Source: Octopus vulgaris | Taxonomy: Eukaryota | Direction: 5' to 3' | Length of the DNA stretch: 64,000 nucleotides | Assembly (NCBI GenBank): GCA_951406725.2 | Contig: OX597817.1 | Coordinates: 175,956,001 to 176,020,000 of the forward strand | Shown: positions 7,064 to 63,531 of the stretch, in pieces | Layout: every line of letters begins with the position of its first letter | How positions within the stretch are numbered: the first letter of the stretch is position 1 | Notes under the pieces: generated by a model | Told to the model about the DNA's origin: nothing | Databases searched by the model: none | Seen by the model: only the letters and a program-made list of their open reading frames with translations | Made by a program: the position numbers and the translations under genes

Positions 7064-7640
7064 TCTATAAGAGACGCCACGACAATATAGCCAGGCTTGT
7101 CCATTGGACACTTTGCAACAAGTATGGGCTTGCGAGAGCAAAAAATTGATACGACCACAAACCTGAAGGCATCGTCGAAAATAGAAATGCAACGATCCTA
7201 TAGGATTTTATGATTCAGTGCGACCATGAGATAGAGAATAGGAAGCCGCACATAGTCTTAATTGAGAAAGAAAACAAACTATGCTGGATCATAGATATGC
7301 CATGCCTAGCTGACAACAAAATATGCTATAAGGAAGAAAGAAAAGTTGAGAGATATCACAGGTTAGCTTGGGAAGTTAAGCAGTTGTGGTCGATGAAAAA
7401 GGTAGCTGTAGTACTAATGAATGTCGGAGCCCTGGGAACAATGAACAAAAAGTTCGAGAAGTACGTGGAACAAATAGGGGCTGCATTAAGGGTGGAGCAC
7501 TTGCAGAAAACAGCACTGCTTGGAAATCGCTCGAATATTCCGGAAGATGCTCGAAAAATAAGAGGTGTTATCTTAGTTCACTGGTAGTGAATAGCTGACA
7601 CTGTAGTACATCTCCAGCGTCGGAAGCTGTGCAAAGGCAA
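7064..7640 (+). pseudogene. 3' end of an RLE-endonuclease LINE (R4/Dong-like)
   Basis: YKRRHDNIARLVHW (RHD motif), RKPHIVLIEK (decayed PD), IID, VGALG. Followed by a (CAA)n/(TAA)n tail. Confidence 0.75.
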
Positions 7641-7642
7641 TT

Positions 7643-7678
<36 letters not shown>

Positions 7679-7702
7679 GCACTAACAACAACAACAATAA
7701 TG

Positions 7703-7736
<34 letters not shown>

Positions 7737-7741
7737 TAATA

Positions 7742-9788
7742 AAGCCGTAACTGAAGACAGCCACAGAAAGAAGAAAGGCCTCAGTATGGCCTGGATTGAC
7801 TACAAAAAGGCGTTTGATAGCATCCCCCACACATGGATCCTCGAAACACTAGCCATTAACAAAGTAGCACCAACAATCATAAAATTCATAGAGCACTCTA
7901 TGAATAAATGGCAAACAGTCCTACACCTCCAAACAAAAGAGGGACTCATGAAAACCAAAGACATCCCCATTAGAAGAGGAATTTTCCAGGGAGACACGCT
8001 CTCTCCACTCCTTTTCTGCTTGGCACTGTCACCTCTATCTGATATGCTAAATAGAACTGGATGCGGATATAAATGTTACGGCAAAACGATCAGCCACCTT
8101 TTATATATGGATGACCTAAAACTATACGCTGCAAATGACAAACAGCTGGAAACACTATTAAAGACAGTTCATGGATTTACCAAAGAAATAGATATGAAAT
8201 TTGGATTAGAAAAATGCGCCAAAGTAACCATGAAAAGAGGAAAACTAGTTAAGAGTAACAACATCACACTAGATAAAACCAATGAAATAAAAGAATTAGA
8301 CCAAAGCTAAACTTACAAATACTTAGGAATCCATGAACTAGATAAGACACAACACACACAAATGAAAGAGAAAATAAAAAAAGAATATTATAGACGAGTT
8401 AGATCAATACTAAAAACAGAGCTCAATGCTAAAAACAAGAAAATAGGTATCAACACTTTAGCTGTCCCAGTTATAAGTTACAGCTACAATATCCTTAACT
8501 GGACACGAAATGAACTGTCCAAAATAGATAGGAAAACAAGAAAAATACTGACAGGATCTAGGATGCATCACCCAAAATCTGACATAGAAAGACTATATAT
8601 ACAACGTATAGAAGGTGGTAGAGGCCTTATACAGCTGGAAAACTACTATAAAATAACCACCATAGGACTGCAAAAATATCTACTTCAGAAGGAAGGAAAA
8701 CTGATCCAGATAGCAGCAAAACACGAGCGAAATAAAAAACTGTTCTCAGTATTTAAGGAAGCTGACAAATACAAACAAGAAATCATACCACCTAACGAAG
8801 AAGAAGAAGAAGAAGAAGATGATGAAGAAACAACAAAAGCTATAAAACAAATGAAATCCAAACTAAAAATAGAACAGCAACGAACCATGATAAAACGATG
8901 GCAAGAAAAGCCCCTTCATGGTAAATACTGCACTAAACTAAACGCAAAAGAAATAGACAAAGAAAAATCCCAGCAATGGTTGAGAAGCTCAGGACTCAAA
9001 GCAGAAACAGAGGGATTTTTAATTGCAGCACAAGACCAAAGCCTCCCCACCAGAAATTACCAAAAACATGTAATGAAAAGAAATATTACAAGTAACTGCA
9101 GAATATGTGGAGATGGACAAGAAACAATAAATCATATTATCTCTAGCTGCCCAGTCCTGGCTAAGAAGGAATATATTCACAGACATGACAGAGTTGGAAC
9201 CTACATACATTGGAAGCTATGCCAACATTATGGAATAACAACAGAAAAAAGATGGTATAGGCACACACCAGAAAAGGTCACAGAAAACGAGAAAGCAACC
9301 ATACTCTGGGATATGCCGATACACACAGATAGAGAAATTAAGGCCAACAGACCAGATATAGTTGTCAGAGATCATGAAGAAAAAAATGCTTTCTAATTGA
9401 TGTATCAATACCGGCAGATGACAACGTTTCTCTAAAGAAATGGAGAAACTCTCAAAATACAAAGACCTGGAAATAGAGGTAACTAGAATGTGGAATCTGA
9501 AAACAGAAACAATTCCTATCATAGTAGGTGCATTAGGCATGATAAAAAAATATTCAGACAAATACATAACAAAAACACCAGGACTTACAAACACATATAA
9601 CATACAGAAAATTGCACTACTAGGCACTGCACACATCCTACGCAGAACACTTTCCATACAATAACCATCAGAGCATCACAACAAATCACAGCACATACCC
9701 AAGGCACACAGAGCTGCGCTCGGTAGTGAAGTGAAAGCACGCTATAAAAATACAACTACTGAATAATGATAATAATAATAATAATAAT
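7742..9788 (+). mobile_element. 5'-truncated R4/Dong-type non-LTR retrotransposon (RT, CCHC, RLE)
   Basis: WIDYKKAFDS, GIFQGDTLSP, HLLYMDDLKL, CRICGDGQETINHIISSC, RHD, NRPDIVV, IIVGALG. One in-frame TAA at 8308 and two 1-nt deficits in A-runs (about 9383 and 9434). (TAA)n on both sides. Confidence 0.9.
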
Positions 9789-15319: not shown

Positions 15320-15365
<46 letters not shown>

Positions 15366-15396
15366 AATGGAGTCGAACGAAGATTTTAACAAAATT

Positions 15397-15491
15397 CCTT
15401 TACTCTCGACACATGTTTCGAAGACGGCATACTTTTAATTCCGAAGGAATAAATGGTGCATTATGCCATCTTCTCATCAGGAAAGATAAGG
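15397..15491 (-). ncRNA. type I hammerhead ribozyme in inverted pLTR (intact core)
   Basis: Minus strand: ctttc-CTGATGA-gaagatggcata...tatgccgtcttc-GAAA-catgtg-TC-gagag. Confidence 0.85.
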
Positions 15492-15664
15492 AGCCTCTTT
15501 CAGCCACAAGACGAACAGAATTTTTGATGATTGCCTACATGGTGACCAAAGTGATAATAAGTGTTTTTTAAAATAATCCGTTATAAGCAATGACGTCAAA
15601 AATGGGTAGAAGGAGGAAGTAGTAAAAATAGGTAGGGGACAATATGTATGCCGTATGTACAAAT

Positions 15665-17740
15665 GAAGACGCAACCGTTGAACCCCAGACAACCAAGATT
15701 CATCTTAAAGGACCACAAACAGAACTTTCATACCAACTTTCATACCAGCATTGCGGCTCATATGCCCTTTTAGTTCAGACATCGGTACCCTTAGTAAATA
15801 CATATTAGATAAGTATATACCTATATTAATTAATAAATTAAAACTTAGCTTATGGTCCAACTCTGCTCAAGTCGTAGAGTGATTTACTTCTATTACCGAT
15901 AAGGCCAACACAAAATTTATACAATTCGATATATCTAGTTTCTACCCTTCAATCAACCCTAGTGTACTTAATAAGGCCCTATGGCACGCACACAATAAGG
16001 CAGGCCTCTCAAGGGATGAAATTGATGTGATATTGGCAGCTAGAAAATATTTCATACAGTTCGATAGCAAGTTGTGGGTCCGCAGGGATACCCCCAACGT
16101 GTTTGATGTACTAATGGGAAGTACAGACAGCGCCCAGATAGCCGATTTGGTCGGAATTTATATTCTCTATGAAATGGCCGACCAATTCCCGGACATCTGT
16201 GGGGGTCTTTATCGCGACGATTGTCTGCTTTACCTCCAGAATGCTTCGAACCAAAAAATACAGAAGATTAAGAACAGATTAGTTAGGTTTTTTAGTAGAA
16301 TATGCTTGAGCATAGTTTTTGACGATGAGTTAACTAAAGCCAACTTCTTAGACATTACCCTCAATCTGCAGAATACTCATACTTCCCTTATCATAAACCT
16401 TCTACTAATCTTAAGTATATCAGCATTTTCAGTAATCATGCCAAGCCAATTACCGATAATTTAGTTAAAAACATTTCTCTGAGACTGTCAAAATTATCTG
16501 CTAATGTCGACATCTTTAACCAAAAAGCGGAATTCTATAACGCCGCCTTGTCAAAAGCCGGTTATAAGGAAAAAGTATCATACATCGACCCAGCTCATTC
16601 TAAACCAACACATGCTTCTCAAGATAGGAAAACCACTCGTAATAAAAATAATGATTTCAATTATAATAGTGCCAGCACCCCTGTACATAATGTAAATCCT
16701 TTACGGACTAGGGGAGGTAAGCGCCACCCAACTCCAAATTTCCAACACAGAAATTTTCCCCTTACTGTCACAAATAACACTAAGAACAATTCTAAGTCTA
16801 CAAAAAACTGTATCTGGTTTGTAATATCTTTCGGAAAACAAATCAAATCGAACCTTCCCTTGCAGTTCCGTGAAGCCATTGCTAGGAACTTTCCCAGTAA
16901 TTCTAGATATCATTCTATTATCAATTCACACAAGGTAAGAATAGCATTCTCTAACACTAGGAATCTTTCGCAAATTATTGCTTCCCATAATAACAAGCTG
17001 CTAAACCAAGATTCTTCACCCGGGGGTTCCAACACTAATCTTACTAATTCCAACCCATCATACAATCATAATAATAGAAATAGTATTGATAGTAACAGCA
17101 TTCGTAGCAGCGTTAGTGTTAGCAATGATAATATTAATAAAAGTATTAGTCGGGTTGATAACAACGGTAATGTTGATGGTAACAACAACAACGGTTCTAT
17201 TGTCGGGGATATAACTGGTTGTAGTGCAATTAATAATAATAATAATAATAATAGGAATAGTGTAGTTGTTAACGCTAGTAGTAATAAAAACAACAATCAT
17301 AACAATAATAACTCTGTCTCGATCTCGGGCGAAAACCCTAACAGATTAAAATTTTTGTCTAGTAATTCCAAAATTAAGAATTCCATTTACCAGTGTAGAA
17401 TTTCTTCCGGTACCGATGTCTTCTTCTATATAGGTGCGACAACTTCTCAGTTATCCAAGAGAATTTCCAATCATTATTCGACTTTCCGAGATAAGAAAAA
17501 ACGACATAGTACAGGACTGAGTAAATTAGTTTGGCGTCTTAAAGACAACAATATAACTTTCAAGTTGGATTGGTTTATATTGTCTGTATCCTTTCCTTTT
17601 GATAAGGGCAGAAAATTTTGTAACATTTGTAATTCTGAACTCTTCTATATCCTTTTCGCCAAGGTTCCCCTAGTAAACACACTCATAGAAAAATCGTAGA
17701 AATGTAAGCATTGGCAAAAACACACTTACCACTCATATAA
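15665..17740 (+). pseudogene. PLE ORF (RT-thumb-linker-GIY-YIG), frameshifted
   Basis: Track ORFs 16027-16464 and 16548-17699 plus an upstream disrupted frame. Indels at about 16375-16450 and a stop before KCKH. Confidence 0.85.
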
Positions 17741-18260
17741 ATGATATAGATAACCACTGTAGTTTTAACAATTAGCTTCACGCCCACACCACTGCCATAG
17801 ACAAATTCTTTCCTATGCCTTCGAACTTTCTTTCTGCTCCGTTATATGTTCCATTGGTACTAAATATCTTTGACGTATGTTTATATCTCTATCTCTCTCT
17901 CTCTTTATAACACGCACAATCAAACACAGACACAAATTTTACACCTTACTACTAAGTATATTTGACGTTTGTATCCCTTACACACACAATAACACATACA
18001 CACACACAGACACAAATGCAGTTATATACACACTCATACACATACACAAACACTCGCACTCATTAACACAAGCACACACCCGCACATCCCCGTACATACG
18101 GCAGACATATTGTCCCCTACCTATTTTTACTACTTCCTCCTTCTACCCATTTTTGACGTCATTGCTTATAACGGATTATTTTAAAAAACACTCATTATCA
18201 CTTTGGTCACCATGTAGGCAATCATCAAAAATTCTGTTCGTCTTGTGGCTGAAAGAGGCT

Positions 18261-18355
18261 CCTTATCTTTCCTGATGAAAAGATGGCATAATGCACCATT
18301 TATTCCTTCGGAATTAAAAGTATGCCGTCTACGAAACATGTGTCGAGAGTAAAGG
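18261..18355 (+). ncRNA. type I hammerhead ribozyme in 3' pLTR (stem II closing pair mutated)
   Basis: CTGATGA 18272-18278, GAAA 18333-18336, catgtg-TC with predicted cleavage after 18344. The stem II base is A/C instead of G-C. Confidence 0.8.
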
Positions 18356-18732
18356 AATTTTGTTAAAATCTTCGTTCGACTCCATTCTTTCATTTATTTA
18401 TATAAAAAACACAAATTTCCACACAAGAACCCGGAGTTTCTACTCTTGACAGGTCGCTTCAACCGTGTTTTCTGACGTGAATTTGCTACCCAGGTATCGG
18501 TCAAACGAATTTTCCATGCTAAGATAATTCATTCACCTACTTAAATATATATATATATATATTTATTTTTATTTTTATATTTTATTTACTTATTTATTTA
18601 TTTTTTTATTTATTTATTAAATATATATAACTATCAAAAAGTATTAAAAAGTTTAATATAAGAATGTCAATATATACCTATACATATGCGCGTGTCTGAA
18701 TGTGTGTCTGAGTGTGTGTGAGTGTATGTGCA

Positions 18733-21229: not shown

Positions 21230-22255
21230 GTTTTTTTAAAGAAATTTTTGTATATGTTTGCAAGTACTAAAAATCTCGGATCATGAATTCAAGATCGAGT
21301 TTGGGAACTTGGATCTAAATAGGATATGCGCCCTTCTGCCAAACAGAGCCTGCATTTATTAGAACCTTTTTTGTATGGTGTAAATTTTTCTATAATTTTC
21401 CATTTAATTGTATATGGTATATTCTTTCGTTTCAGTTCCCACATATAGCTGGACAATTTCGTGATATTGCTATTCTCGCCTTAACGGAAAGTTGATAAGT
21501 GGTTTGTATAACGTTTATATCTTATTGGCTATGTTATTGTTGTTATGGTTTGCAATCACATCAGCCCCGCATATAACTGATTCTGTCTTACATTGTTTAT
21601 CAAGCGGGAAAAACTCTGGTTCTCGACAGTTGCAGCCAGTTTCCCTTTCCTGACGCTGGCTTTTCATATTAGGACAGCAACTATATAAAAGCTTCACTAA
21701 ATTCCTATTGAACAATTTTCTGAATTTATGGTCATTCGTGAAGTGCTTCTCCGTAGGCGCAAGGGATTTCTTGCCAATATTTGTTTTAACATTGAGGGCA
21801 AAAAGAGGGGCAAACCAAATAATCTTTCTAGACATATTCCTATGCTTTGTTTTATCACTGTTGATGCTTTGATTATCATTATTAGGGGGTTTGTAAACTA
21901 ATTTTTCCCTAAATCCGGTGTTAGCCAAAGCTTTATTGTAATATAGTGCGGCCTTATCAAGAATTTCCTCAGAGGACGAGAGAGATGACACTCTTTTGCT
22001 AATATTCTCTATTAAGTTTCTAAAACGCCCGGTGGGTGGTACGACTGCTTATGTATGTATGTAAGTTTTTCACTTACTTTGTGAAACGGCTTGTAAGAAG
22101 AAGTTAGGTTGAATGGCACATCTAAATAATCTACTACAGTAATTTTTAGTCCCAAATAACTAAAAGTAGAAATTAACTGCTTTCTGAATTTATCTAATGC
22201 TCGACCGCGAAACACGTGGGAGACAATCAAACTGTCATCCCGGTATAGTCCCACA
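21230..22255 (-). pseudogene. Penelope-like element fragment (RT C-terminus, CxC linker, GIY-YIG)
   Basis: GLYRDDSL, YKPFHK, HPP, IIWF, YSCCPNM, GCNCR, CRLCLAE. Confidence 0.8.
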
Positions 22256-28782: not shown

Positions 28783-28913
28783 CGCACGCATGACGTTAGT
28801 CCTTCAGTTTCAATCTACTAAATCCACTCACAAAGCCATACTTTTACAGACAAGTGTGAGAGGGTGTGTATTTATACACATGCGTGCGCGCGCATATATA
28901 TGTGCACAAAATC

Positions 28914-28962
<49 letters not shown>

Positions 28963-29024
28963 GCCTACATATGCATATGTATATATATATATGTATTTAT
29001 ATGTATACATATACATATATATAT

Positions 29025-32000
29025 GAATCTAGCAAATGAATCTAGCAAAAGAACTGGAAAAAAACATCCGAGCTATCACCCACCACCATCCACCACTATT
29101 ACCCCACTGCACATGCCATTAAAAAGCAATCAAATAAACAAATCACCAAAACAATTAAAACCATTCACTCTCGCCTCAACATTTCTGCTTAATGCCCAAG
29201 GCATCAGCCCTTCCACCAATACACAAAAATGGAAGATAAGATTCCTGGAGGACTGGGTCGAGGCCCATCCAAACCACATCCCTTTCTTCGTCCTCACTGA
29301 AACCCATCTTAGTGACCTCCACTTGGAAGCCGAGGTGAAAGTTAAAAATTTCAAAACCATTCGTGCTGATCGTGCTGGCAGAAGAAAGGGTGGGACTGCC
29401 ATTTATGTCCATGATTCATTCTCAACAGAAGCCATGAACATATTTTCCAATGGGTACTGCGAAGCAGTCGCTGTATTCAGTCAAACCAACAACTTAACAG
29501 TAGTTGGGCTCTACAGACCACCCCAAACGCCCCTACCATGCTTCAAGGAATGCCTCAGCAGCATAAAGTGTTTCATTCAGCAGTGTCAACCTGACAACAT
29601 TTTAATGATGGGAGACTTCAACCATCCCGGGGTTGACTGGTCTACAAACAGTCTGCCGCCAGGTTCTTCTCTCTCAACCCCTGCAAGGGAGGCAGTGGAA
29701 TCGCTTCTTGACTTCATGGATGACTTCTTCTTGTCCCAACTGGTACTCGAACCAACGAGATGTCACAAAAAGGTCTTAGACTTAATTTTCAGCAATCACA
29801 CTGATACTATCCACAATATTGCAGTGGAGAAAACCCTACTCTCCGACCATGACATGGTTCTCTGTGATCTGAGATTTCACTTGCCAAAATGCAAAACAAA
29901 TGTCATCCCTCCTGTTCATCCATTTGACACTATGGATTTCCACAATGCAAACTGGGAAGCGATCAATAATGATCTTGCACAAGTCGATTGGTCCTTCACG
30001 CACACATACACACCCACTAACATCAAAAAGTCCTGGCAGTCACTTGTAGACACCATCACGAACATATGTGCAAGACACACCCCATTAAGATCTGCAAACA
30101 AATCTAAGTGTCGAATCCCTAGAAATAGAAAATCTCTCATAAGGAAAATTAAAAGAATCAACAAAAAGATCAACATGCTGAAATACTGTCAACAGCAACA
30201 CACCAACCTGACTGCCATCTCGTCGCTAGATATTAAAAAACATAAACTCCAAAACAACATGATGTCTATCATCAATAGTCAGCGAAGAGCTGAAGAGGCC
30301 TGGGCCATTGAGAAGATCAAACTCAATCCCAAAGTGTTCTTTTCATTTGCAAAAAAACATAGAGTCACTGGTTCTACTGTTGGCCCTCTGATTGATGAAA
30401 ATGGTACTCTTCAAGACAATGCCAAAACCATGGGAGAGATATTGCAGAAACAATATTGCTCTGTTTTCAGCAATCCTGATATGACTGATCTGGGCTGTAT
30501 CAGTGATGTTACTCCCCAATACACTTTATCGGACATAACATTTGGCGCTCCTGATGTCTTAGCAGCAATAAAGGAAATGAAGCATAATTCAGCAGTAGGT
30601 CCCGATAGGTTCCCTGCTTGTGTCTTGAAGATGTGTCAAAACCAACTTGCACCCCCTCTAGCCAATCTGTGGCGGAACTCACTGGATGCTGGATATATAC
30701 CAGAAGACCTTCTATCCCAGTCTGTTGTCCCAGTTTTCAAAAAAGGAAACAAATCGCTTGCCGTGAATTACCGTCCAATCTCACTCACCTCCCATATCAT
30801 CAAGGTATTTGAGAGGGTGCTGAGATCGCGTATGACTCACTTCCTTGAGAGTCATAATATGCTGAACCCCAACCAGCATGGATTCCGTAATGGGAGAGAT
30901 TGCCTGACGCAGCTACTGCATCATTTTGATGACATTTTGAGAGCCTTGGGAGAAGGTTCCAACACTGATGTCATCTACCTTGATTTCAGCAAGGCCTTCG
31001 ACAGGGTTGATCATAAGATCCTTCTGAGAAAGCTGTCCAATATTGGTGTCACTGGAAAGCTGCTGCAGTGGATCAAGTGCTTCCTGTCTAACAGAACCCA
31101 ACATGTTGTAGTCGAAGGAGTCAAATCCAGCCCAGCCAAAGTCAGCAGTGGTGTCCCACAAGGCACTGTGTTGGGCCCACTTCTCTTCATCATCTACATA
31201 AATGATATTACTGACACCATCAAACACAGTAACATCAGAACCTTTGCTGATGATTCCAAGCTCCAGAAGGTCATCAATGGCGTGGATGACCGAATAAACC
31301 TTCAGTCAGACCTACTGGCTGTTGTCCAATGGGCGGAAAAGAATAACATGTTGCTAAATGAAGACAAATTCGAACTGATCCACTTTGGAAGGGAGGACGC
31401 TCTGAAACTCCCATACTCTCTTCCTTCTGGAGAAATTCTCATGGCATCCAACAACATCAGAGACCTGGGAGTAACAGTGGACAACAACATAAGCTGGGCT
31501 ACACATATAAGCAGCAAAGTTGACATGGCCCGCAGAATGTGTTCCTGGATTCTCAGAACCTTCCAGTCGAGAGATTCCCACGCTATTATCCTTCTCTTCT
31601 TCACTTTTGCCCGACCCCACCTTGAATACTGCTGTCCACTGTGGTCTCCCTACACAAAGCAAAATATTATGAGAATTGAAGCTCCCCAAAGGTCAATCAC
31701 AAAAAAAGATAGATGGCATGTCAGACCTTGACTACTGGGGTAGACTAGAGAAGCTAAATTGTATTCACTCCAACGACGCCGTGAACGCTACATTATCTGT
31801 ATGATGTGGAAAATATTCCATCAGCACTGTCCGAATGATGTTGGCATCACCTTCAAAATGCATCCAAGGCTTGGACCACGTGCCATCCGTCCACAACAAA
31901 AATCTAAATCGCATCACGTAACGACAATACGGCACAACTATTTCACCTCAATTGGACCCGCTCTCTTCAACATTACACCAGGACACGTCAAAAAAGAAAC

Positions 32001-32350: not shown

Positions 32351-35330
32351 TCACGAATGCTTTTTAGCAATTGCCATTTGGTGCATGAGAGAGTTCGATG
32401 CAGCTGCCCTCATCTGCACCTCCTGCCGTGAAGTTGGTTCATCTGGGATACCTGACAAGAAGAGATCCAGTTTCATTTTAAAGACATCTGCATCAACCCC
32501 ATGCAGGTCTCTTAGGTTCTTCGGGAGGATATTGAAGAGCTGTGGGCCTCGGAAGCCCAGGCTATCACAGTATCTTGTCCTACATCTTGATGGCAAATTT
32601 GGAGTCCTTGACACCACGCAGTGGCGCCCAGTTCTGGCATTTGTGTAACTCTAGATGCCAAAGTTTGGGACAAGTCCTTCCAGGATCTTCCAGATGTATA
32701 TTATGGCATATCTTTCTCGCCTACGCTCCAAGGAATAGAGTTTTAATCTCTTGAGTCTTTCCCAGTAGCTTATATTCTGCACAGAGGCTATCTTCTTCGT
32801 GTAGCTACGTTGGATCGCCTCAAGTTCTGTGATCAACTTGACACTGGATGGTGACCATAGCTGAGAGCAATAGTCAAAGTGGCTTAGGACAAGTGTCCTC
32901 CAGAGGACCATCATGGTTTCTTGTTCTCTTGTTCTAAAGGTTCTGAGAATCCATCCGGCCAGTCGTCTACATTTCATTGCCAATTTAGCAACATGTACAC
33001 GAAAGGTTGCGTCATCACTCATGTAAATACCCAGGTCACGCACTGATTGTGCCTCTGGGATTGTAATTCCTCCGGGTCCAGTGTATTCATTGGGTATTGC
33101 ATTTAGTTTTGCATGCTGATAGCATAAAGCTTGAAACTTTTCAGCATTGAACTGCATGCTATTCTTTTCAGCCCACTTGTATATTTTGTCCAGCTCACAC
33201 TGCAGGCGTTTAGTGTCCTCAGGGTTCTGTATTGCCTGTGAAACTTTTGTATCATCTGCATAACTTGTGATCGTGGCTCTCTACGTGGCTGAGGGCATGT
33301 CTGAGAGGGCCATTATGAACAGTAGTGGTCCCAAAACAGTGCCCTGCGGAACACCGCTCACTATTTGCGTGTTAATGGAAGTGCCCATGGCTACTACCAC
33401 CTAACTTCTATCTTTCAGAAAGTCATGAAGCCATTCTCCCAGTTTTCCAACTATGCTAAGATCATGCAGTTTGTGACATATCATTCCATGATCGACTTTA
33501 TCAAAGGCCTTTGCAAAGTCGAGATATATCACTTCCACATTTGAGTGGTTGAGCAGTCGTTTCAGCACCCAGTCATAGTGTTGTAGGAGCCGAGTTAAGC
33601 AGCTTCTTCCTGGTCGGAAACCATGTTGGGTGTCAGGCAGCAAGTCATTTTCTTCAAGGAAGGTGATTAGTTTCCTTCTGACTATTCGTTCCATGACCTT
33701 GCTGATGTGTGAGGTCAGAGAGATAGGTCTGTAGTTCTTGGCCTCCGCTCTGCTACCTCCTTTATGAATAGGGCATATTTTACCTTCCTTCAGTTTTCTT
33801 GGAAGTTTGCCAGTTGCAAGGAAGCTCTGAAAGAGGAACTGCAGTGGTCTTGCTAGGACTCTCTTACATACTTTTAGGAGGATTGCCGGGAATCCATCGG
33901 GGCCAGTAGCTGAGTCTGTTTTCATTTCATCTATAGCCTTTATTACATCGTCTTCCTTTATATCGATGTAATCTATCGTCGCTGCCTCTGACTTTATATC
34001 TGCAGTGGTAAAGAAGTCAGTTGGATTGCTGATTTGGAAATGCCCAAGGGGTGGAGTGAAAACACTCTTGAATTGCTTATTCAGTATTTCACTTACCCTC
34101 ATTGGTTTCCTGTGAGTGTGCCATCCTTTTCAAGGAGTGGTCCTATCGTACAGTGCACCGTAGCTGTTTCTTTGGCATACCTGTAGAAAGCTCTGGGGTT
34201 AGATTTTATGTTGTCTATAGCCCAGGCTTCTTTGTCTGCTCTTTCCTTTTCATGGGAGAGTTGCAGACATTTTTCAATTTCCAACAGTTTTATTTTCAGG
34301 CGGGACTTTTCACTGCTTTCAATTTGTTTGTTTAGGCGATTTGAAATTTTTGTACGCCGTCTCATTAAAATTTTCCTCTCTCCGGGGATTTTGTTCTTGT
34401 GTACAATGGCCTTTCTCTCTGTGACACATTTGTAGCATATGGCTTGCATTACACACATGAATTGTTGAAGTTTCACGTCGATGTCTCGCGAGGAGAGACA
34501 TTCAGGCCAGTTTTGTTTGAGGATCTCTTTCTCAATTTGTTTCCAGTTTGCCTTATGGAAGTTCAAGCTGGAAAGATTCTGAGGGTTTCTTGTAGGCTGC
34601 ATGTCCATGCTTTCCTTTGGCCCGTACATGGTCAGCTGTACCATGTTGTGATCCGAGAGTAGTGTCGGTGTCACTTTCACATTATGGATGAGATCCATAT
34701 TATTTGTGAAGCAGAGATCCAGTGTGTTACCTGCCCTGGTTGGTTGGAGTATTACTTGCTCCATGTACAGGGTGTTGATGAGGTTCAGGAGGGACCTCGC
34801 CTGTCCTCGTTCACATCTTGTAATTCCTGGGAGAGAAAGGCCCTCGGGCCATCTGACATTGGGTAGATTGAAGTCTCCCATAAGAAGTACACTTATGTGT
34901 TGTTCTAATGTGATTAGAACTTCTATTTTTATAAAGCAGTCTTCAAACTTGCCTACATGGCTTGGGGCATCTGGAGGGCGATATGTAGCACACACAACTA
35001 CATCAAGTTGCCTTATATGTACAATTAGTGTGTCACACACCGAGTTTGAGTATGACAAAAGGACCTGGGGTGTGAGGTCCTCACGGATGTACATAGCAAC
35101 TCCTCCATGACTCCTTTCTTTTCTATCGGTCCGTAGTACAACATACTGTGGTATGTGTAATTCCGCATCTGCTATGTCCGGTTTCAGGTGCGTTTCCGTA
35201 AGTGCTATGCATAAGGCTTGATTGCATGCAACAAAGTCTCTCAAGAACGGGATTTTTGTCCTGTTACTGAGTGTTTGCAGTCCTCTGATGTTCAGTAGGA
35301 GCATCGAGGTGAGGTGTATGCTGTTGCCGG
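32351..35330 (-). pseudogene. LINE ORF2 (APE-RT), disrupted
   Basis: LLNIRGL, LTETHL, YRPP, MGDFNLP, SDH, YLDFAKAFD, SYADD, LYSLERRRERY. Several stops and frameshifts. Confidence 0.88.
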
Positions 35331-36197
35331 CGGTGTCCACCTTGGGTCTATTTGCTGTGGTGGTCTTGTATATTGTGGGTAGTCCCATCTGCGAGCTTGG
35401 GTTTGATGAAGCCAGGTTAGCTGCTGTACAATCTTTTGTGCCATGCACAAAAAAGAGTCTTGTTCAGCAGCTGCCCTTTCAACAACATCATGTTGGCCGT
35501 TTGTGGCACGCACCACATCTACGTACCTCCGTTTTGGGGCAGGTGGTGCGTGGTCCATCCCTTTTCCTTTTGTTAGTTTGTTTCTGGTCTGTTTCGTGTC
35601 TCTGCGGCAGGGTCCCCGATGTGCAAAACGGCAGCCTGCACCTTCCTCTCCATGCCAGCAGGTACCTCTCAGGTAGAACCTACACACCCGTGTGCGCTGT
35701 TTGTTTCTATCCTTTTTGGTATATGGATAGTCAGTTTTACTTCTATTCTTGGCTGTTTCATTTTTTGGTTTTGTTTGAGTTTTTCTTTTAGTTTTTCCTC
35801 CTTTTATTTCTTCTTTGGGTTCTTCATCTCCATGGCTTTTGGTGCTGGTAGGAGCACTTGCACTTGGGTTTACTTCCCGGGCAGGTTTCTCACTTGAAAC
35901 CTCTTCCCGGGTGTCTACTAGGTGGGGATGACTTCTTTCATCAGCACCCGTGTCTCCATCCTTGCCATCTTTACTTTGTTCCTTCTCAAAGATGGCATCA
36001 AGCGTGCTAATGTGAGATCTTATAAGTGCATAGGAGAGTATAAACTCCTGCTTCTTCCGCTCTATCTGAGCTATTGTCCTTTTATAACTACCGCTCCTCA
36101 GCGCAGCTGTAATTATATTGTTAGGATTATCTCCGTCGGCGCATTGCCAGGTTCGTACGAACAACGCCAATTCGTCACGTCTCCAGGTTCTGGACAT
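35292..36197 (-). CDS. LINE ORF1 protein with CCCH zinc finger
   Basis: 301-aa open frame directly upstream of and overlapping the APE frame. Contains CRFYLRGTCWHGEEGAGCRFAH. Confidence 0.7.
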   Translation of the reverse strand: MSRTWRRDELALFVRTWQCADGDNPNNIITAALRSGSYKRTIAQIERKKQEFILSYALIRSHISTLDAIFEKEQSKDGKDGDTGADERSHPHLVDTREEVSSEKPAREVNPSASAPTSTKSHGDEEPKEEIKGGKTKRKTQTKPKNETAKNRSKTDYPYTKKDRNKQRTRVCRFYLRGTCWHGEEGAGCRFAHRGPCRRDTKQTRNKLTKGKGMDHAPPAPKRRYVDVVRATNGQHDVVERAAAEQDSFLCMAQKIVQQLTWLHQTQARRWDYPQYTRPPQQIDPRWTPPATAYTSPRCSY

Positions 36198-36204
36198 GTT
36201 GGAT

Positions 36205-36730
36205 ACTCTATATATTTATCTATCTAATTATGTTTAAAATTTAATAGTGTGATAGAGGGCAGAGAAGACGTAGAGAAAGAAAGTGACGGTGTATTTAGAG
36301 AGATTGAGAGCTGAGAGAAGATAAGAAGATATTTTATTTATTTATCTATCTAATTATATCTATCTAACTATATTTATTTATCTATCTAATTTATCTATCT
36401 AATTATATTTAAAATTTAATAGTGTGATAGAGGGTAGAGAAGAAATAGAGGAAGAAAGTGACTGTGTATTTAGAGAGATTGAGAGCTGAGAGAAGATAAG
36501 AAGATATTTTATTTATTTATCTATCTAATTATATCTATTTATCTATCTAATTATATCTATCTATTATATCTAATTTATCTATCTAATTATATTTATTTAT
36601 CTATCTAATTTATCTATCTAATTATATTTAAAATTTAATAGTGTGATAGAAGGTAGAGAAGAAATAGAGAAAGAAAGTGACTGTGTATTTAGAGAGATTG
36701 AGAGCGGAGAGAAGATAGTGACTATATATT
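36205..36730. repeat. three tandem units in the putative LINE 5' UTR
   Basis: tttaaaatttaatagtgtgatagarggyagagaaga...gagagaagata at about 36233, 36407 and 36627, separated by variable tatcta spacers. Confidence 0.8.
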
Positions 36731-37806: not shown

Positions 37807-37856
<50 letters not shown>

Positions 37857-37860
<4 letters not shown>

Positions 37861-39378
37861 AAATGGATAAATGTTACGGATTATTCAAAAGATAACCGAT
37901 ACCTGGGTAGCAAAAATCACAACAGAAAAATCACGGTTGAGGTTACGACCATGGGGTCTCAAACCTGTGCCTTAGTGCGGAAATTTGAAGTTTATATATT
38001 TAGTGTAGGAAGAAATGGAGCTGAACGAAGATTTAACAAAATTCCTTTTTATTATTTTCTACATATGTTTCAAAGGCTGCAAAGTCCCTAATTCGGATTG
38101 AATAAGGAGACCATTTTGCAGCCTTCTCTTCAGGAAAATCCAGGAACTTAATTCTCCAACAAAATGCACATCAAACTTTTCGACAAACGCTCGCGAGGAG
38201 CCCATGGGATAAATGGCACAAAACTGTCTCTCAATATGCGTTGACGCCAGGCTGGGTGAAAGCCGACGAAAAAGTCCGTTGAGATAGATCAAGGTAAAAA
38301 TCCGGCTAACAGGGGGGAGTGTTACAGGAAAATCAAAGAGTGTGAATGTATTCTGTATGACTGGTGTTAATATTCGAATTGTTTTAAGAATGAGTGCTAT
38401 AGTGTTTGAGTGTGAGAAATTGCCTACATGTATGTGTGTGTGCGCCTATGTATGTGTGGCAGTGTGTTTAGAAGGCTGCAAGGGAGAGAGATATAGCAGC
38501 TATTAATGGTCAAGCAGCTGAAAGAAACTGTGTCTGTGTGTTCCTCTGTAACCAGTTGGTAGAGGGATGGAATGTCAACAATGGGAGGATACAGTGACAT
38601 CCCTGAAAGCAGTTGTAGATAAGTAGCAGTTCTTACGCTAATAGGGGAGTGACTTACAAATTTAATTCAAAATTTCTTTCTTTTCTTAGGAAATCAAGGG
38701 GTTAACTATCTTAGACTTCATTGGAATGCAAGAAATGTGTGCCGCTTCCAGTGCGGGCATCTAAAAGAATTTTGCACAATCGAGTTAACAAGTTGCCCTC
38801 GGGCGAACAGAATATGAAATAGTTCCGAGTTGCAAAGATTACAGATTCTTTTGCCTCTATCAAACGGTAAAGACACCGATAAAATCGACCATTCCAGTCT
38901 AAAGGTTGAATTCGCGTTCTTCAAACGCCAGACTAATTTACTTAGTCCCGTAGCGTGTTGCTTTCCAAAATCGCGAAACGTTGAGAAATGATTCGATATT
39001 CTAACAGCCAATTTCGATGATGAAGCTCCGATATACATGTAGACATCTGAATCAGTATAAACTGTGCACTGGTAAATGGCGTTTCTAATATTGGAATTAC
39101 TAGATAAAAACCTTATTCTATTGGGGTTGGCTTCCGATATTAATACGGCGTTCTTATTACTATGATGATTGTAAAAACTACGTCTGTCTTCGACATTATT
39201 CACCCCATTATCATTACTATTTAATGCAATATCGCCTGTATACTCCCTGCCACTGAGAACGCTGTGATTGCTAATGTCCGTGATACTACTGCTGTTAAAA
39301 CCGCTGCTAATATGTAGAAAATAATAAAATAATAAAAAGGAATTTTGTTAAATCTTCGTTCAGCTCCATTTCTTCCTA

Positions 39379-39382
<4 letters not shown>
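37857..39382 (-). mobile_element. 5'-truncated Penelope-like element (GIY-YIG, pLTR, short inverted pLTR)
   Basis: ORF 38718-39203 AIYQC..YIG..R..H, CNLC.SE, CPH is homologous to the 17330-17740 domain. About 39330-39382 is the reverse complement of about 38002-38054. (TA)n flanks. Confidence 0.88.
38055..38139 (-). ncRNA. type I hammerhead ribozyme
   Basis: Minus strand: attttc-CTGAAGA-gaaggctgcaaa...tttgcagccttt-GAAA-catatg-TA-gaaaat. Confidence 0.82.
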
Positions 39383-39721: not shown

Positions 39722-39763
<42 letters not shown>

Positions 39764-39764
<1 letters not shown>

Positions 39765-40216
39765 GGTGAATTGAAGAAATGGAGCTGAACGCAGATTGAA
39801 CAGAAATCGTTTTATTTCATTCTACACGTGTTTCGAAAGGCACAATTTACCAAAATCCGATTGAATAATGGGACCATATTGTGTCTTTCTCTTTTGTTTT
39901 TTTCCAACGGATTTCCTATTTTCTTCCTGAAGAGAAAGACACAATATGGTCCCATTATTCAATCGGATTTTGGTAAATTGTGCCTTTCGAAACACGTGTA
40001 GAATAAAATAAAACGATTTCTGTTCAATCTGCGTTCAGCTCCATTTCTTCAATTCACCAATAATATTTTAATTTCAATTATCCGCACCAACGAACGGTTG
40101 CAACACCATATGGTTGTACCTCCAACCGTGCTGTTTACTGCTGTGATTTTTGCTACTAAGGTATCGGTTAAACTTTTGATTAATCTACTACAAGATTATT
40201 CATCTTTCTATTTCAC

Positions 40217-40220
<4 letters not shown>
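39764..40220 (+). mobile_element. non-coding inverted pLTR pair (130-bp arms) with 3' extension
   Basis: 39764-39893 is the reverse complement of 39930-40059. The downstream sequence resembles the pLTR ends at 18360-18545 and 37857-38050. Confidence 0.85.
39917..40010 (+). ncRNA. type I hammerhead ribozyme (intact)
   Basis: tattttcttc-CTGAAGA-gaaagacacaat...attgtgcctttc-GAAA-cacgtg-TA-gaataaaata. Predicted cleavage after 40000. Confidence 0.85.
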
Positions 40221-40282
<62 letters not shown>

Positions 40283-43475: not shown

Positions 43476-43523
<48 letters not shown>

Positions 43524-43643
43524 ACAATCAAGGAACGGCCATAATAGGCCATTCACCCACTAGAAATAACAGCCAAAGCTTCAACCGCAAATAAAAATTA
43601 ATTCCGTAAACCAGGAGAAAATTTAAAAAACATTTACCCTGTA

Positions 43644-43750
43644 ATTTCTTATACGATATACCGTTTCATCTGCTGATTAATGGTAAACTAACCTGATTAA
43701 ATTAAATCAAGCCAATCTTCCACAGGCCCTCAGATTCTTCAGTAAGAAAT
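43644..43750 (-). ncRNA. type I hammerhead ribozyme, copy 1
   Basis: Reverse complement of 44748-44854. Confidence 0.85.
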
Positions 43751-44136
43751 AGCCCAAGTCGGAACAGATATTTTCACGAGGCATTTCCGACCTTGCCAAG
43801 TTTATATCTGACCTAAAATTTTCAAATCGTCGCACTCGCGCCAAATTTATCGGCAGCAAATAAATATAAGCCGTCGATTCCATTACGGAATTAATCAGAA
43901 AATTCATAATTAATCAATATAGGGTGGCAAAAAAAAATTTTGTAGAATTCTTTTGCCACCAGCGGCCTAGTGGGAAAAAATTAAATAGTCATAGACCATT
44001 TTTAAGTTCAACATCAACAATCAAGGAACGGCCATAATAGGCCATTCACCCACTAGAAATAACAGCCAAAGCTTCAACCGCAAATAAAAATTAATTCCGT
44101 AAACCAGGAGAAAATTTAAAAAACATTTACCCTGTA

Positions 44137-44243
44137 ATTTCTTATACGATATACCGTTTCATCTGCTGATTAATGGTAAACTAACCTGATTAAATTAAAT
44201 CAAGCCAATCTTCCACAGGCCCTCAGATTCTTCAGTAAGAAAT
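44137..44243 (-). ncRNA. type I hammerhead ribozyme, copy 2
   Basis: 493 bp from copy 1, same sequence. Confidence 0.85.
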
Positions 44244-44747
44244 AGCCCAAGTCGGAACAGATATTTTCACGAGGCATTTCCGACCTTGCCAAGTTTATAT
44301 CTGACCTAAAATTTTCAAATCGTCGCACTCGCGCCAAATTTATCGGCAGCAAATAAATATAAGCCGTCGATTCCATTACGGAATTAACCAGAAAATTCAT
44401 AATTAATCAATATAGGGTGGCAAAAAAAGTTGGCTGTTATTTCTAGTGGGTGAATGGCCTATTATGGCCGTTCCTTGATTGTTGATGTTGAACTTAAAAA
44501 TGGTCTATGACTATTTAATTTTTTCCCACTAGGCCGCGGGTGGCAAAAGAATTCTACAAAATTTTTTTTGCCACCCTATATTGATTAATTATGAATTTTC
44601 TGGTTAATTCCGTAATGGAATCGACGGCTTATATTTATTTGCTGCCGATAAATTTGGCGCGAGTGCGACGATTTGAAAATTTTAGGTCAGATGTAAACTT
44701 GGCAAGGTCGGAAATGCCTCGTGAAAATATCTGTTCCGACTTGGGCT

Positions 44748-44854
44748 ATTTCTTACTGAAGAATCTGAGGGCCTGTGGAAGATTGGCTTGATTTAATTTA
44801 ATCAGGTTAGTTTACCATTAATCAGCAGATGAAACGGTATATCGTATAAGAAAT
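44748..44854 (+). ncRNA. type I hammerhead ribozyme, copy 3
   Basis: atttctta-CTGAAGA-atctg...cagat-GAAA-cggtatatcg-TA-taagaaat. Predicted cleavage after 44846. Confidence 0.87.
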
Positions 44855-45240
44855 TACAGGGTAAATGTTTTTAAAATTTTCTCCTGGTTTACGGAATTAA
44901 TTTTTATTTGCGGTTGAAGCTTTGGCTGTTATTTCTAGTGGGTGAATGGCCTATTATGGCCGTTCCTTGATTGTTGATGTTGAACTTAAAAATGGTCTAT
45001 GACTATTTAATTTTTTCCCACTAGGCCGCTGGTGGCAAAAGAATTCTACAAAATTTTTTTTTGCCACCCTATATTGATTAATTATGAATTTTCTGGTTAA
45101 TTCCGTAATGGAATCGACGGCTTATATTTATTTGCTGCCGATAAATTTGGCGCGAGTGCGACGATTTGAAAATTTTAGGTCAGATATAAACTTGGCAAGG
45201 TCGGAAATGCCTCGTGAAAATATCTGTTCCGACTTGGGCT

Positions 45241-45347
45241 ATTTCTTACTGAAGAATCTGAGGGCCTGTGGAAGATTGGCTTGATTTAATTTAATCAGGT
45301 TAGTTTACCATTAATCAGCAGATGAAACGGTATATCGTATAAGAAAT
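45241..45347 (+). ncRNA. type I hammerhead ribozyme, copy 4
   Basis: Same motif. Predicted cleavage after 45339. Confidence 0.87.
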
Positions 45348-45569
45348 TACAGGGTAAATGTTTTTTAAATTTTCTCCTGGTTTACGGAATTAATTTTTAT
45401 TTGCGGTTGAAGCTTTGGCTGTTATTTCTAGTGGGTGAATGGCCTATTATGGCCGTTCCTTGATTGTTGATGTTGAACTTAAAAATGGTCTATGACTATT
45501 TAATTTTTTCCCACTAGGCCGCTGGTGGCAAAAGAATTCTACAAAATTTTTTTTGCCACCCTATATTGA

Positions 45570-45621
<52 letters not shown>

Positions 45622-45622
45622 A

Positions 45623-45659
<37 letters not shown>

Positions 45660-62109: not shown

Positions 62110-63531
62110 CAGTTGCGGCCAAAATGATCAGAACGGTTGAAAAAATAACAAAATAATCAAAAAGTGACAGAGAATGCTGGAATTATTTCATATCTAGTGT
62201 GAAGCCCTTTAACTTCAATCAAAGTTTGACATTTTGACTGCATGGAGAAATTAAATTTTCAATTTATTGCTGGGTGATCTTATTCCATTCTTCCTGAAGG
62301 GCATTCCATAATTGCTCGGTTGTTTTAGGATTTCTGGCTTTCAAACGTTCTCCTAGAATATTCCACACATTTTCAACAGGATTGAGGTCTGGGCTTTGAG
62401 CAGGCCAATCCATAACAATAACCTTTTCAGCCTTGAGGAAGTTCATGACCACCTTAGCCTTGTGACATGGGACATTGTCCTGCATGAATATGGGTGGTCG
62501 GTTAGTTGAATTTCTCAGCACAGGCAAGACATGATCTTTTAGAAGTGAAGTTTTTTATAAACTCCTGCATTTACCTTTCCATGTTTTCGCAGCAAAAGGG
62601 CCCACAACATCTCCAGATATCATCCCCCAAACCATGACACTTCCTCCACCGAATTTAACACTAGTCTTAAGGCATTTAGGTGACAATTTTTCACCTGCTT
62701 TTCCCATCTGAGCCAAATAACATAGACTTAGATTCATCACTGAAATGCACCGTTTGCCATTTTTCTTGAGACCACAACACATGTTCGGTTGCAAAGGTAA
62801 GACGACACTTTTTATTTTTGGAGCTGATCAGTGGCTTCACTGCAGGTGCTCTTGCTTGTAGGTCATGTTCAACTAAAGGACGAGACACAGTTTTTCGAGA
62901 TAAAGTTTTCTTCAGTACATTGCTCATTTCCCGAAAAACAGCAGCAGCAGTTTTAAATCTGTCCTTTTTAACCAACTTTACCATAGCATGATCTTCTCTC
63001 TTGGTCGTTTTTCTTGGCCTACCTGTAGACTTTCTTGCTTCACACGAACAACAATCATCGTAGACCTTAAGAATACCGTGAACAACACTTTTTGACTTGT
63101 TAACAATCTTTGCAATAGACCTAATACTTAAATTATCCTTCTTTCGAAGCTTAATAATCTGCTGACGAATTGGTAACGGAGTAAGTGGCAATTATATTAA
63201 CAAAGTACACTGCAAATATTCTTACTAATGTTTAGTAAACGAACCGTCACATAAACAAATTCAAAACATTAGAGTTTGACGGTTAAATATACTAAAACAT
63301 GGAGTAAAAGCAACCGTTCTGATAAATTTGGCCGCCATGGGTTTTGCAGTAAATCACTAAATCATCCATAACTTTTTTATTATCCTCTCAAATTACACCA
63401 AAATCTCAGACAATAACAAATAATATCGTAATTATTGTCTGTGAAAATTATAGAATATAAAACAACTTTGATAAAAACTTATACCTACTTTTCTGACGAA
63501 AACAATGCCGTTCTGAACATTTTGGCCGCAA

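Follow-up and report, generated by a model that had tools for sequence, protein, structure and literature searches.

Paired 3' ends at two fixed sites in inverted insertions of a 493-nt hammerhead-bearing repeat family of Octopus vulgaris

Insertions of a 493-nt hammerhead-bearing repeat in the Octopus vulgaris genome carry a distinct footprint: two arms are fused 5' to 5' and nearly always end at two different fixed sites of the unit. This footprint is the new element of our analysis. The literature we searched holds no account of strict pairing of two start sites, nor of a genomic pile-up at a ribozyme cut site. Judged by its sequence features, the 493-nt family itself fits as a young dispersed family within the known class of animal non-LTR retrozymes. 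Our literature search returned no description of this 493-nt family, and supplements or repeat databases outside that search may list related repeats. Statements drawn from PMC4209133, PMC7229834, PMC8557442, PMC3846280 and 10.64898/2026.07.22.740005 refer to the available parts of these sources.

The locus lies in a 64,000-nt stretch of contig OX597817.1 (positions 175,956,001 to 176,020,000, forward strand), which we call the window. We number the unit so that phase 1 is the first base 3' of the predicted cut site, and we call the two positions at which arms end site A and site B. Along the window, the locus is composed as follows.

43479..43521, no strand: left (TA)n target
43520..44428, minus strand: B arm of 1.84 units, running from phase 210 (5') to site B at phase 132, where its 3' end meets (TA)n
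43644..43750, minus strand: type I hammerhead motif, H17 at 43652
44137..44243, minus strand: type I hammerhead motif, H17 at 44145
44429..44429, no strand: 5'-to-5' arm junction, 1 nt between arms
44430..45577, plus strand: A arm of 2.33 units, running from phase 76 (5') to site A at phase 239, where its 3' end meets (TA)n
44748..44854, plus strand: type I hammerhead motif (helix II long, helix III palindromic), H17 at 44846
44847..45339, plus strand: predicted 493-nt monomer, cut site to cut site
45241..45347, plus strand: type I hammerhead motif, H17 at 45339
45472..45577, plus strand: "tail" of about 107 nt between sites B and A, present only at one outer end
45575..45658, no strand: right (TA)n target

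A preliminary description of this stretch had reported two opposed arrays of about 1.8 and 2.3 units inside (TA)n, and our measurements agree (1.84 on the minus strand, 2.33 on the plus strand). The left and right arms are 99.7% and 99.6% identical to the monomer, respectively. The predicted cleavage positions lie 493 nt apart on both strands, as had been described (H17 at 44846 and 45339 on the plus strand, 44145 and 43652 on the minus strand). The absence of a reverse transcriptase (RT) or transposase from the unit was also confirmed. The longest ORF on the circularised unit spans 68 codons from stop to stop, and the unit lacks the ORF with RT and GIY-YIG domains that defines an autonomous Penelope-like element (PLE). 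A search for Pol III promoter elements in the unit returned one A-box-like match per strand and no B box, and we claim none. The monomer RNA folds better than 100 of 100 shuffles (z = -5.66 as a linear molecule, z = -5.4 as a circle), and the hammerhead region folds better than 200 of 200 (z = -4.36). When 16 units were compared, 11 of the 110 consensus pairs of the monomer fold had changed on both sides.

Each motif consists of an 8-bp helix I, CUGAAGA, a 5-bp helix II base closing a 58-nt insert, GAAA, a near-palindromic helix III and GUA. The core (CUGANGA, GAAA and NUH) and helices I to III, the features of a type I hammerhead, are all present. A descriptor scan of the whole window found four identical motifs in the element, in keeping with the claim that every full unit has an intact type I ribozyme, and two unrelated motifs beside PLE fragments. 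The hammerhead search proposed in the preliminary description thus succeeded with a descriptor and failed with Rfam models: over the element, Rfam scans returned matches that were due to microsatellites or to chance, and none to a hammerhead. This failure probably stems from the long helix II. Since hammerheads with a long helix II escaped Rfam here, similar families elsewhere may be under-counted. Further motifs of this kind, belonging to other families, lie near fetched loci (L011:1204 and L084:355).

We assessed covariation on 35 of 64 distinct hammerhead regions, namely all 16 multi-copy regions and 19 single ones, drawn from diverged subfamilies and an older sister family. Across these regions 94.2% of stem cells were paired, compared with 33-50% in slid controls. 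Doubly changed pairs were found at 3 of 8 positions in helix I and 2 of 6 in helix III. Their count was not above that of shuffles (72/500), most stem changes being single events between the two families, with few independent events; it is also an under-count for helix II of the sister family, which is misaligned in this alignment. Position N7 takes all four bases across copies, H17 is A or C, and the sister family has C at position 4. A candidate GGC/GCC pairing between loop I and loop II (a helix I/II pseudoknot) is 98% paired but invariant and is therefore uninformative.

Four variants of helix III occur, and in each its 10 nt form a palindrome or come close to one. The central pair is A-U in some and G-C in others, and such a pair forms only between two molecules. 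The calculated energy of helix III is -0.2 kcal/mol as a hairpin versus -13.6 kcal/mol as a duplex, and the pairing probability of helices I and III in the circular fold is low (0.05-0.27). That a palindromic helix III leads to dimeric hammerhead cleavage is established (PMC4209133). Taken together, the alignments suggest that compensatory changes keep helix III palindromic and that the hammerhead is under selection. We consider it probable that the hammerhead cleaves in vivo.

A monomer search of the 2.8-Gb genome returned 950 candidates, with at least 221 matches in the 40 that were scored, and the family is dispersed on more than 20 contigs. Genome-wide, an exact 27-mer across the cut site occurs 812 times and its reversed control 0 times. 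Exact motifs joining an arm end to TA occur 670 times for site A, 241 times for site B and 0 times in controls, which indicates at least several hundred insertions. A single-locus artefact, which the preliminary description had named as a possible refutation, is ruled out by the 812 exact 27-mers and the matches on more than 20 contigs. Full-unit copies of the core family are 97-100% identical among the matches listed, and related subfamilies stand at about 88-98% identity. The older sister family has a 488-nt unit, 74% identity, 2570 candidates and the same anatomy. The copy number, the 97-100% identity, the (TA)n-bounded arms and the covarying stems support the earlier proposal of a young, non-autonomous, hammerhead-bearing tandem retroelement. 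In sequence runs labelled as five other organisms, 31-54% of the words sampled are shared with the unit. Assembled contigs of four runs that we guessed to be RNA cover the unit partly and at low depth, and carry no strand, end or circle information.

To map arm ends we used the window locus and the 39 loci with the highest scores, a choice that favours long arrays but no type of end. These 40 loci have 78 arms: 37 end at site A, 37 at site B and 4 elsewhere. Site A lies at about phase 239 (232-244) and site B at about phase 132 (123-138), 107 nt apart. This difference in fixed phase between the outer ends is absent from the preliminary description. The (TA)n flanks that had been suggested as a check were found almost without exception, with 73 of the 74 A or B ends running into TA. 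Among 32 inverted pairs, 28 combine A with B, one is A+A, none is B+B and three have another end. The pairing recurs in other sets: A+B was seen in 13 of 14 further short loci and in 3 of 3 inverted pairs in long arrays, and where 20 loci were chosen for an A end, the partner arm ended at B in 12 of 13 pairs. In the sister family, searched with an A-ended query, no second arm ends at A, and 10 of 11 end at phase 126-149.

The 5' ends behave differently from the 3' ends. Across the 40 loci they vary over the whole unit, and the longer arm can be either A or B. Arm junctions show overlaps of up to 19 nt or inserts of up to 41 nt, with an overlap of 2-19 nt in 16 of the 32 inverted pairs. The start phases that the preliminary description wished to see surveyed are thus variable for 5' ends, while the 3' ends are fixed at two sites and not random as plain rolling circle predicts. 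A tandem with an inverted, 5'-truncated copy and a tail at one end, a feature of PLE-mobilised insertions, is present. Both start sites lie 13-18 nt 3' of hairpins kept in both families (window 45340-45577; phases 99-118 and 184-222). These hairpins sit inside one domain closed by a conserved helix and are candidate protein-binding elements.

We next consider where copies stop. The stop rate was estimated from complete position lists of three exact marks on one contig, C1. For 21 of 88 phase-48 marks there, the array does not extend across the cut site within 66 nt, and 34 of 62 phase-455 marks survive the next 407 nt. The stop rate just 3' of the cut site on this contig is 2.8 times that elsewhere (p = 4e-5). 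Read by sequence, 20 of the 21 non-crossing marks stop at phases 1-42 and one just past the cut site. Outermost marks stop in 17 of 52 cases, compared with 4 of 36 for inner marks and a baseline of 9% (one-sided Fisher P = 0.023; contig C1 only). Genome-wide counts at phase 475 (812) and phase 335 (527) are confounded by subfamily variants and were left out of this estimate, which we also prefer to a gap statistic of 7/21 that was hand-read with a post hoc threshold. The stops are smeared over about 40 nt with few exactly at phase 1, and in the long-array set 1 of 64 5' ends falls within 2 nt of the cut. Both arms stop just 3' of the cut site in 11 short inserts, which were chosen for that pattern. 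Two inserts stop at phases 458-468 on both arms, inside the ribozyme, and this looks like a structural stall.

If a structural stall caused the stops, they should appear in every round, and if a partly cut multimer were copied, stops should be equal at each crossing. A stop excess in the first round only would be expected if cut linear RNAs and closed circles were both copied. First-round copies do pile up at the predicted cut site, with the inner-versus-outer contrast coming from one contig.

Sequence variants provide a view of template identity. We excluded L059, which holds two adjacent insertions. Variants are homogeneous within loci to a degree well beyond that of shuffles (422T 41/42, against a shuffle mean of 13.1 and maximum of 21; 47A 43/43; 55C 40/43; 173T 43/43; 344C 40/41) and concordant between the two arms (422T 27/27; 47A 29/29; 55C 28/29; 173T 21/21; 344C 26/26). 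The cut-site junction is exact in 181 of 183 crossings. These data indicate that arms do not come from random RNAs or sloppy jumps. Arms reach about nine units, and the unit closes head to tail on itself. Subfamily variants fill whole arrays of 6-10 units, which implies a one-unit bottleneck for new variants. Assembly polishing or later conversion could also produce unit homogeneity.

A few loci depart from this purity. L040, L043 and L044 are mosaics of sister haplotypes, with 131T at rounds 0 and 5 in L043 and L044 alike, and L114 has a partial 3-unit pattern (305T in rounds 1, 4 and 8; 142T in rounds 3 and 6). A multimeric template, later recombination or conversion, or assembly error would also fit the mosaic arrays. 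At L220:164-1591 a full-length A arm faces a B arm in which a deleted unit of about 240 nt (phases 393-140) occurs twice in identical form. The B-arm units lack phases 141-392 and hence site A, and the private variant 13A is common to both arms. The simplest reading of this single case is that a deleted mini-circle was read 2.4 times beside a full-length RNA of the same donor.

PLE fragments in the window, with weak RT and GIY-YIG matches below Pfam cut-offs, led us to two young PLE families with open frames of 899 and 717 codons. Both co-occur with the 493-nt family. The 899-aa copies of PLE-899 are 97.4-99.8% identical. PLE-899 carries RIRW and DKT without CxCX5C, while PLE-717 carries RWK, DKT and CxCX5C, which are described as Hydra-clade motifs. 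We selected 30 PLE-899 loci by their outer end. Among these, each of the 13 inverted arms whose 3' end is visible has it at phase 56-70, and the partner arms end at about phase 227. For PLE-717, 8 of 10 inverted two-arm loci clearly have one long-site and one short-site end, and 2 are unclear. Both young Hydra-type PLEs therefore obey the same paired-end rule as the 493-nt family. The PLE-like insertion anatomy that had been proposed for the locus is thus found in autonomous PLEs of the same genome.

Several related insertions lie in the window itself. A short two-arm insertion of the PLE-899 3' end (39761-40226) ends at phases 227 and 62 in (TA)n, 3 kb from the element. A Hydra-like PLE copy (15362-18390) has a 299-nt inverted arm, a long-helix-II hammerhead, and RT and GIY-YIG parts in two frames. 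The interval 37830-39380 holds the 3' fragment of another PLE of the Hydra-like group, with hammerhead H17 at 38060 on the minus strand, and a decayed fragment at 21515-22048 is the one that led to PLE-717. Position 4 of the hammerhead-like core is C in PLE-717, a feature it shares with the sister retrozyme family. Other mobile elements in the window are a 969-codon frame with endonuclease and RT domains (28822-31731), a broken second LINE-like element on the opposite strand to that frame (32651-36215) and an RT-bearing non-LTR element, split over two frames and inserted at an (AAT)n/(AAC)n tract (7591-9396). A 166-codon frame (62691-63191) resembles the N-terminus of a Tc1-type transposase.

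We also looked for the PLE that would mobilise the 493-nt unit. Compared with the 3' regions of PLE-899, PLE-717 and the two older window PLEs, the 493-nt family gave no match above shuffles (38-172 of 200 were as good); these four regions make up the comparison. The sister family has a 35-nt motif in common with one older PLE (window 37830-39380; 0 of 200 shuffles), with 17, 30 and 168 of 200 shuffles for the other three PLEs. A degenerate motif built from this 35-nt stretch occurred in a single place, L205. A Hydra family with TA preference, Hydra-1_Obim (2507 bp, (TA)n), is listed for an octopus (PMC8557442, File S1). On the whole we lean towards a Hydra-type partner.

We compared the family with known systems. 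It is like animal non-LTR retrozymes (PMC7229834; 10.64898/2026.07.22.740005) in having non-coding, low-GC tandem units, each with one type I hammerhead, that are dispersed in the genome. Structured RNA, a palindromic helix III, co-occurrence with PLEs and the absence of LTR structure are further likenesses. Unlike them, it has a 58-nt helix II extension, a motif invisible to Rfam and strict (TA)n targeting, and inverted two-arm inserts with fixed paired 3' ends are not among the features described for retrozymes in the available parts of those sources. Animal non-LTR retrozymes yield RNA circles (PMC7229834); for the 493-nt family such circles are predicted. The species assayed or screened for retrozymes are, in these sources, coral, mussel, axolotl, 31 vertebrates and 3 insects (PMC7229834; 10.64898/2026.07.22.740005), and one of nine predicted retrozyme dimers cleaved (10.64898/2026.07.22.740005).

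Hydra-clade PLEs (PMC8557442) share the (TA)n target, a hammerhead near the 3' end, partial tandems, an inverted 5'-truncated copy and a tail at one end. The 493-nt unit differs from them in having no ORF and no significant match to PLE-899 or PLE-717. Its tail is 107 nt, compared with the 30-40 nt described (PMC8557442), about 67 nt in PLE-717 and about 160 nt in PLE-899. Tandem-plus-inverted structures and tails were already known for PLEs (PMC8557442, PMC3846280). An Anolis Poseidon PLE studied in vitro (PMC11167929) is alike in that two internal RT start sites bound a tail and the target is AT-rich. In that system both strands are cut and extended, the protein is predicted to be a dimer, the hammerhead is dispensable in vitro, the start site is the same on both strands, and RNA-seq revealed no ends at the cut site (PMC11167929). 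In contrast, 493-nt inserts almost always use one A and one B and show a first-round pile-up at the cut site.

L1 twin priming, in which two primed cDNAs are fused 5' to 5' and give an inverted 5' part, bears a formal resemblance to these inserts. In the 493-nt family, however, the second start is fixed, and the arms overlap by hundreds to thousands of bases and do not abut.

The 493-nt element is probably a non-autonomous retrozyme. Self-cleavage and circularisation are predicted for its RNA, which a Hydra-type PLE RT/endonuclease likely copies into DNA. Tandem transcripts would be cut by the hammerhead acting as a dimer via its palindromic helix III. The enzyme would then nick both (TA)n strands, with one cDNA starting at A and one at B. 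With a cut linear RNA as template, both cDNAs would run off at the cut site and give short inserts; with a ligated circle, they would continue for up to about nine rounds. Microhomology or short fill-in would then join the two cDNAs. We hold target priming at (TA)n by a PLE to be very probable. Circles have been proposed as templates before (PMC4209133, PMC7229834), and we somewhat favour them as the templates of long arms here. The least secure part is that each event uses two RNAs, so that the two arms come from two RNA molecules of one donor locus, which we regard as possible but doubtful. As a tentative general model, PLE integration may be a paired two-template reaction, in which two ribozyme-processed RNAs of one donor, held together via the palindromic helix III, are primed at different fixed sites by two (TA)n nicks, and circles template the tandem copies.

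A PLE might instead copy only uncut linear multimers, with the hammerhead a passenger or protein-assisted accessory and the cut-site stops being RT stalls. Hammerhead mutants do insert in vitro and unprocessed RNA is the main substrate of the anole PLE (PMC11167929), and the two inserts that stop inside the ribozyme on both arms, the 131T mosaics of L043 and L044 and the partial 3-unit pattern of L114 could all be read this way. However, the stop excess is confined to the first crossing, with inner crossings at baseline (4/36, 9%), and arrays of 6-10 units filled by new variants need a one-unit bottleneck. The L220 tandem of an identical deleted unit and the retention of the hammerhead core while N7 and the stems change also speak against it, and we judge copying from uncut multimers alone unlikely. 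It is very improbable that the inverted arm owes its origin to self-priming on an antisense template, or to the first cDNA folding back on itself, instead of to a second target-primed start. Such an origin has been proposed for head-to-head structures of rotifer Penelope (PMC3846280), and short junction overlaps are common here (2-19 nt in 16/32). Yet the longer arm can be either one, and the second arm has a fixed end site of its own in (TA)n. At L220 the second arm also has a rearrangement that the first lacks and was therefore not copied from the first cDNA.

The unit might also be the mere pseudo-LTR of an autonomous PLE elsewhere in the genome, a possibility that the preliminary description had set against its own reading. 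In Xenopus, 24 of 57 retrozyme families match known TEs, 21 of 22 being PLEs (10.64898/2026.07.22.740005), and the PLE families examined here are a subset, with a Naiad type of TA preference listed for octopuses (PMC8557442). Against this stand the arms themselves: 20 of 20 site-A loci, chosen regardless of ribozyme, and four long arrays have no PLE ORF next to an arm, and with the 40-locus set included none was seen attached in the 40 + 24 loci examined. Arms in the 40-locus set end in (TA)n or at the central junction, with 4 exceptions that have no common flank, and the unit closes head to tail on itself in arrays of up to 9 units. We therefore hold the pseudo-LTR origin to be remote. A locally expanded satellite or an assembly artefact is refuted as the main explanation and retains almost no probability. 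Near-identical tandem and inverted units are hard to assemble, and polishing can homogenise them, but such an origin is at odds with the spread over more than 20 contigs, fixed end phases, locus-specific haplotypes and an older sister family of the same anatomy. The reading we prefer thus remains PLE-type copying of a ribozyme-bearing RNA from two fixed start sites.

How PLEs build tandem and inverted copies, and what role hammerheads and RNA circles play, is an open question on which this footprint bears. As a young family of short, abundant elements, it allows insertions to be counted as products of the reaction. These insertions set three constraints: start sites used in pairs, a first-round pile-up at the predicted cut site, and haplotype-pure arrays across arms. 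Intact candidate enzymes in the same genome make the model directly testable. If the paired two-template model is true, the 493-nt RNA and the intact 717- and 899-aa proteins of the same genome would constitute a natural minimal system.
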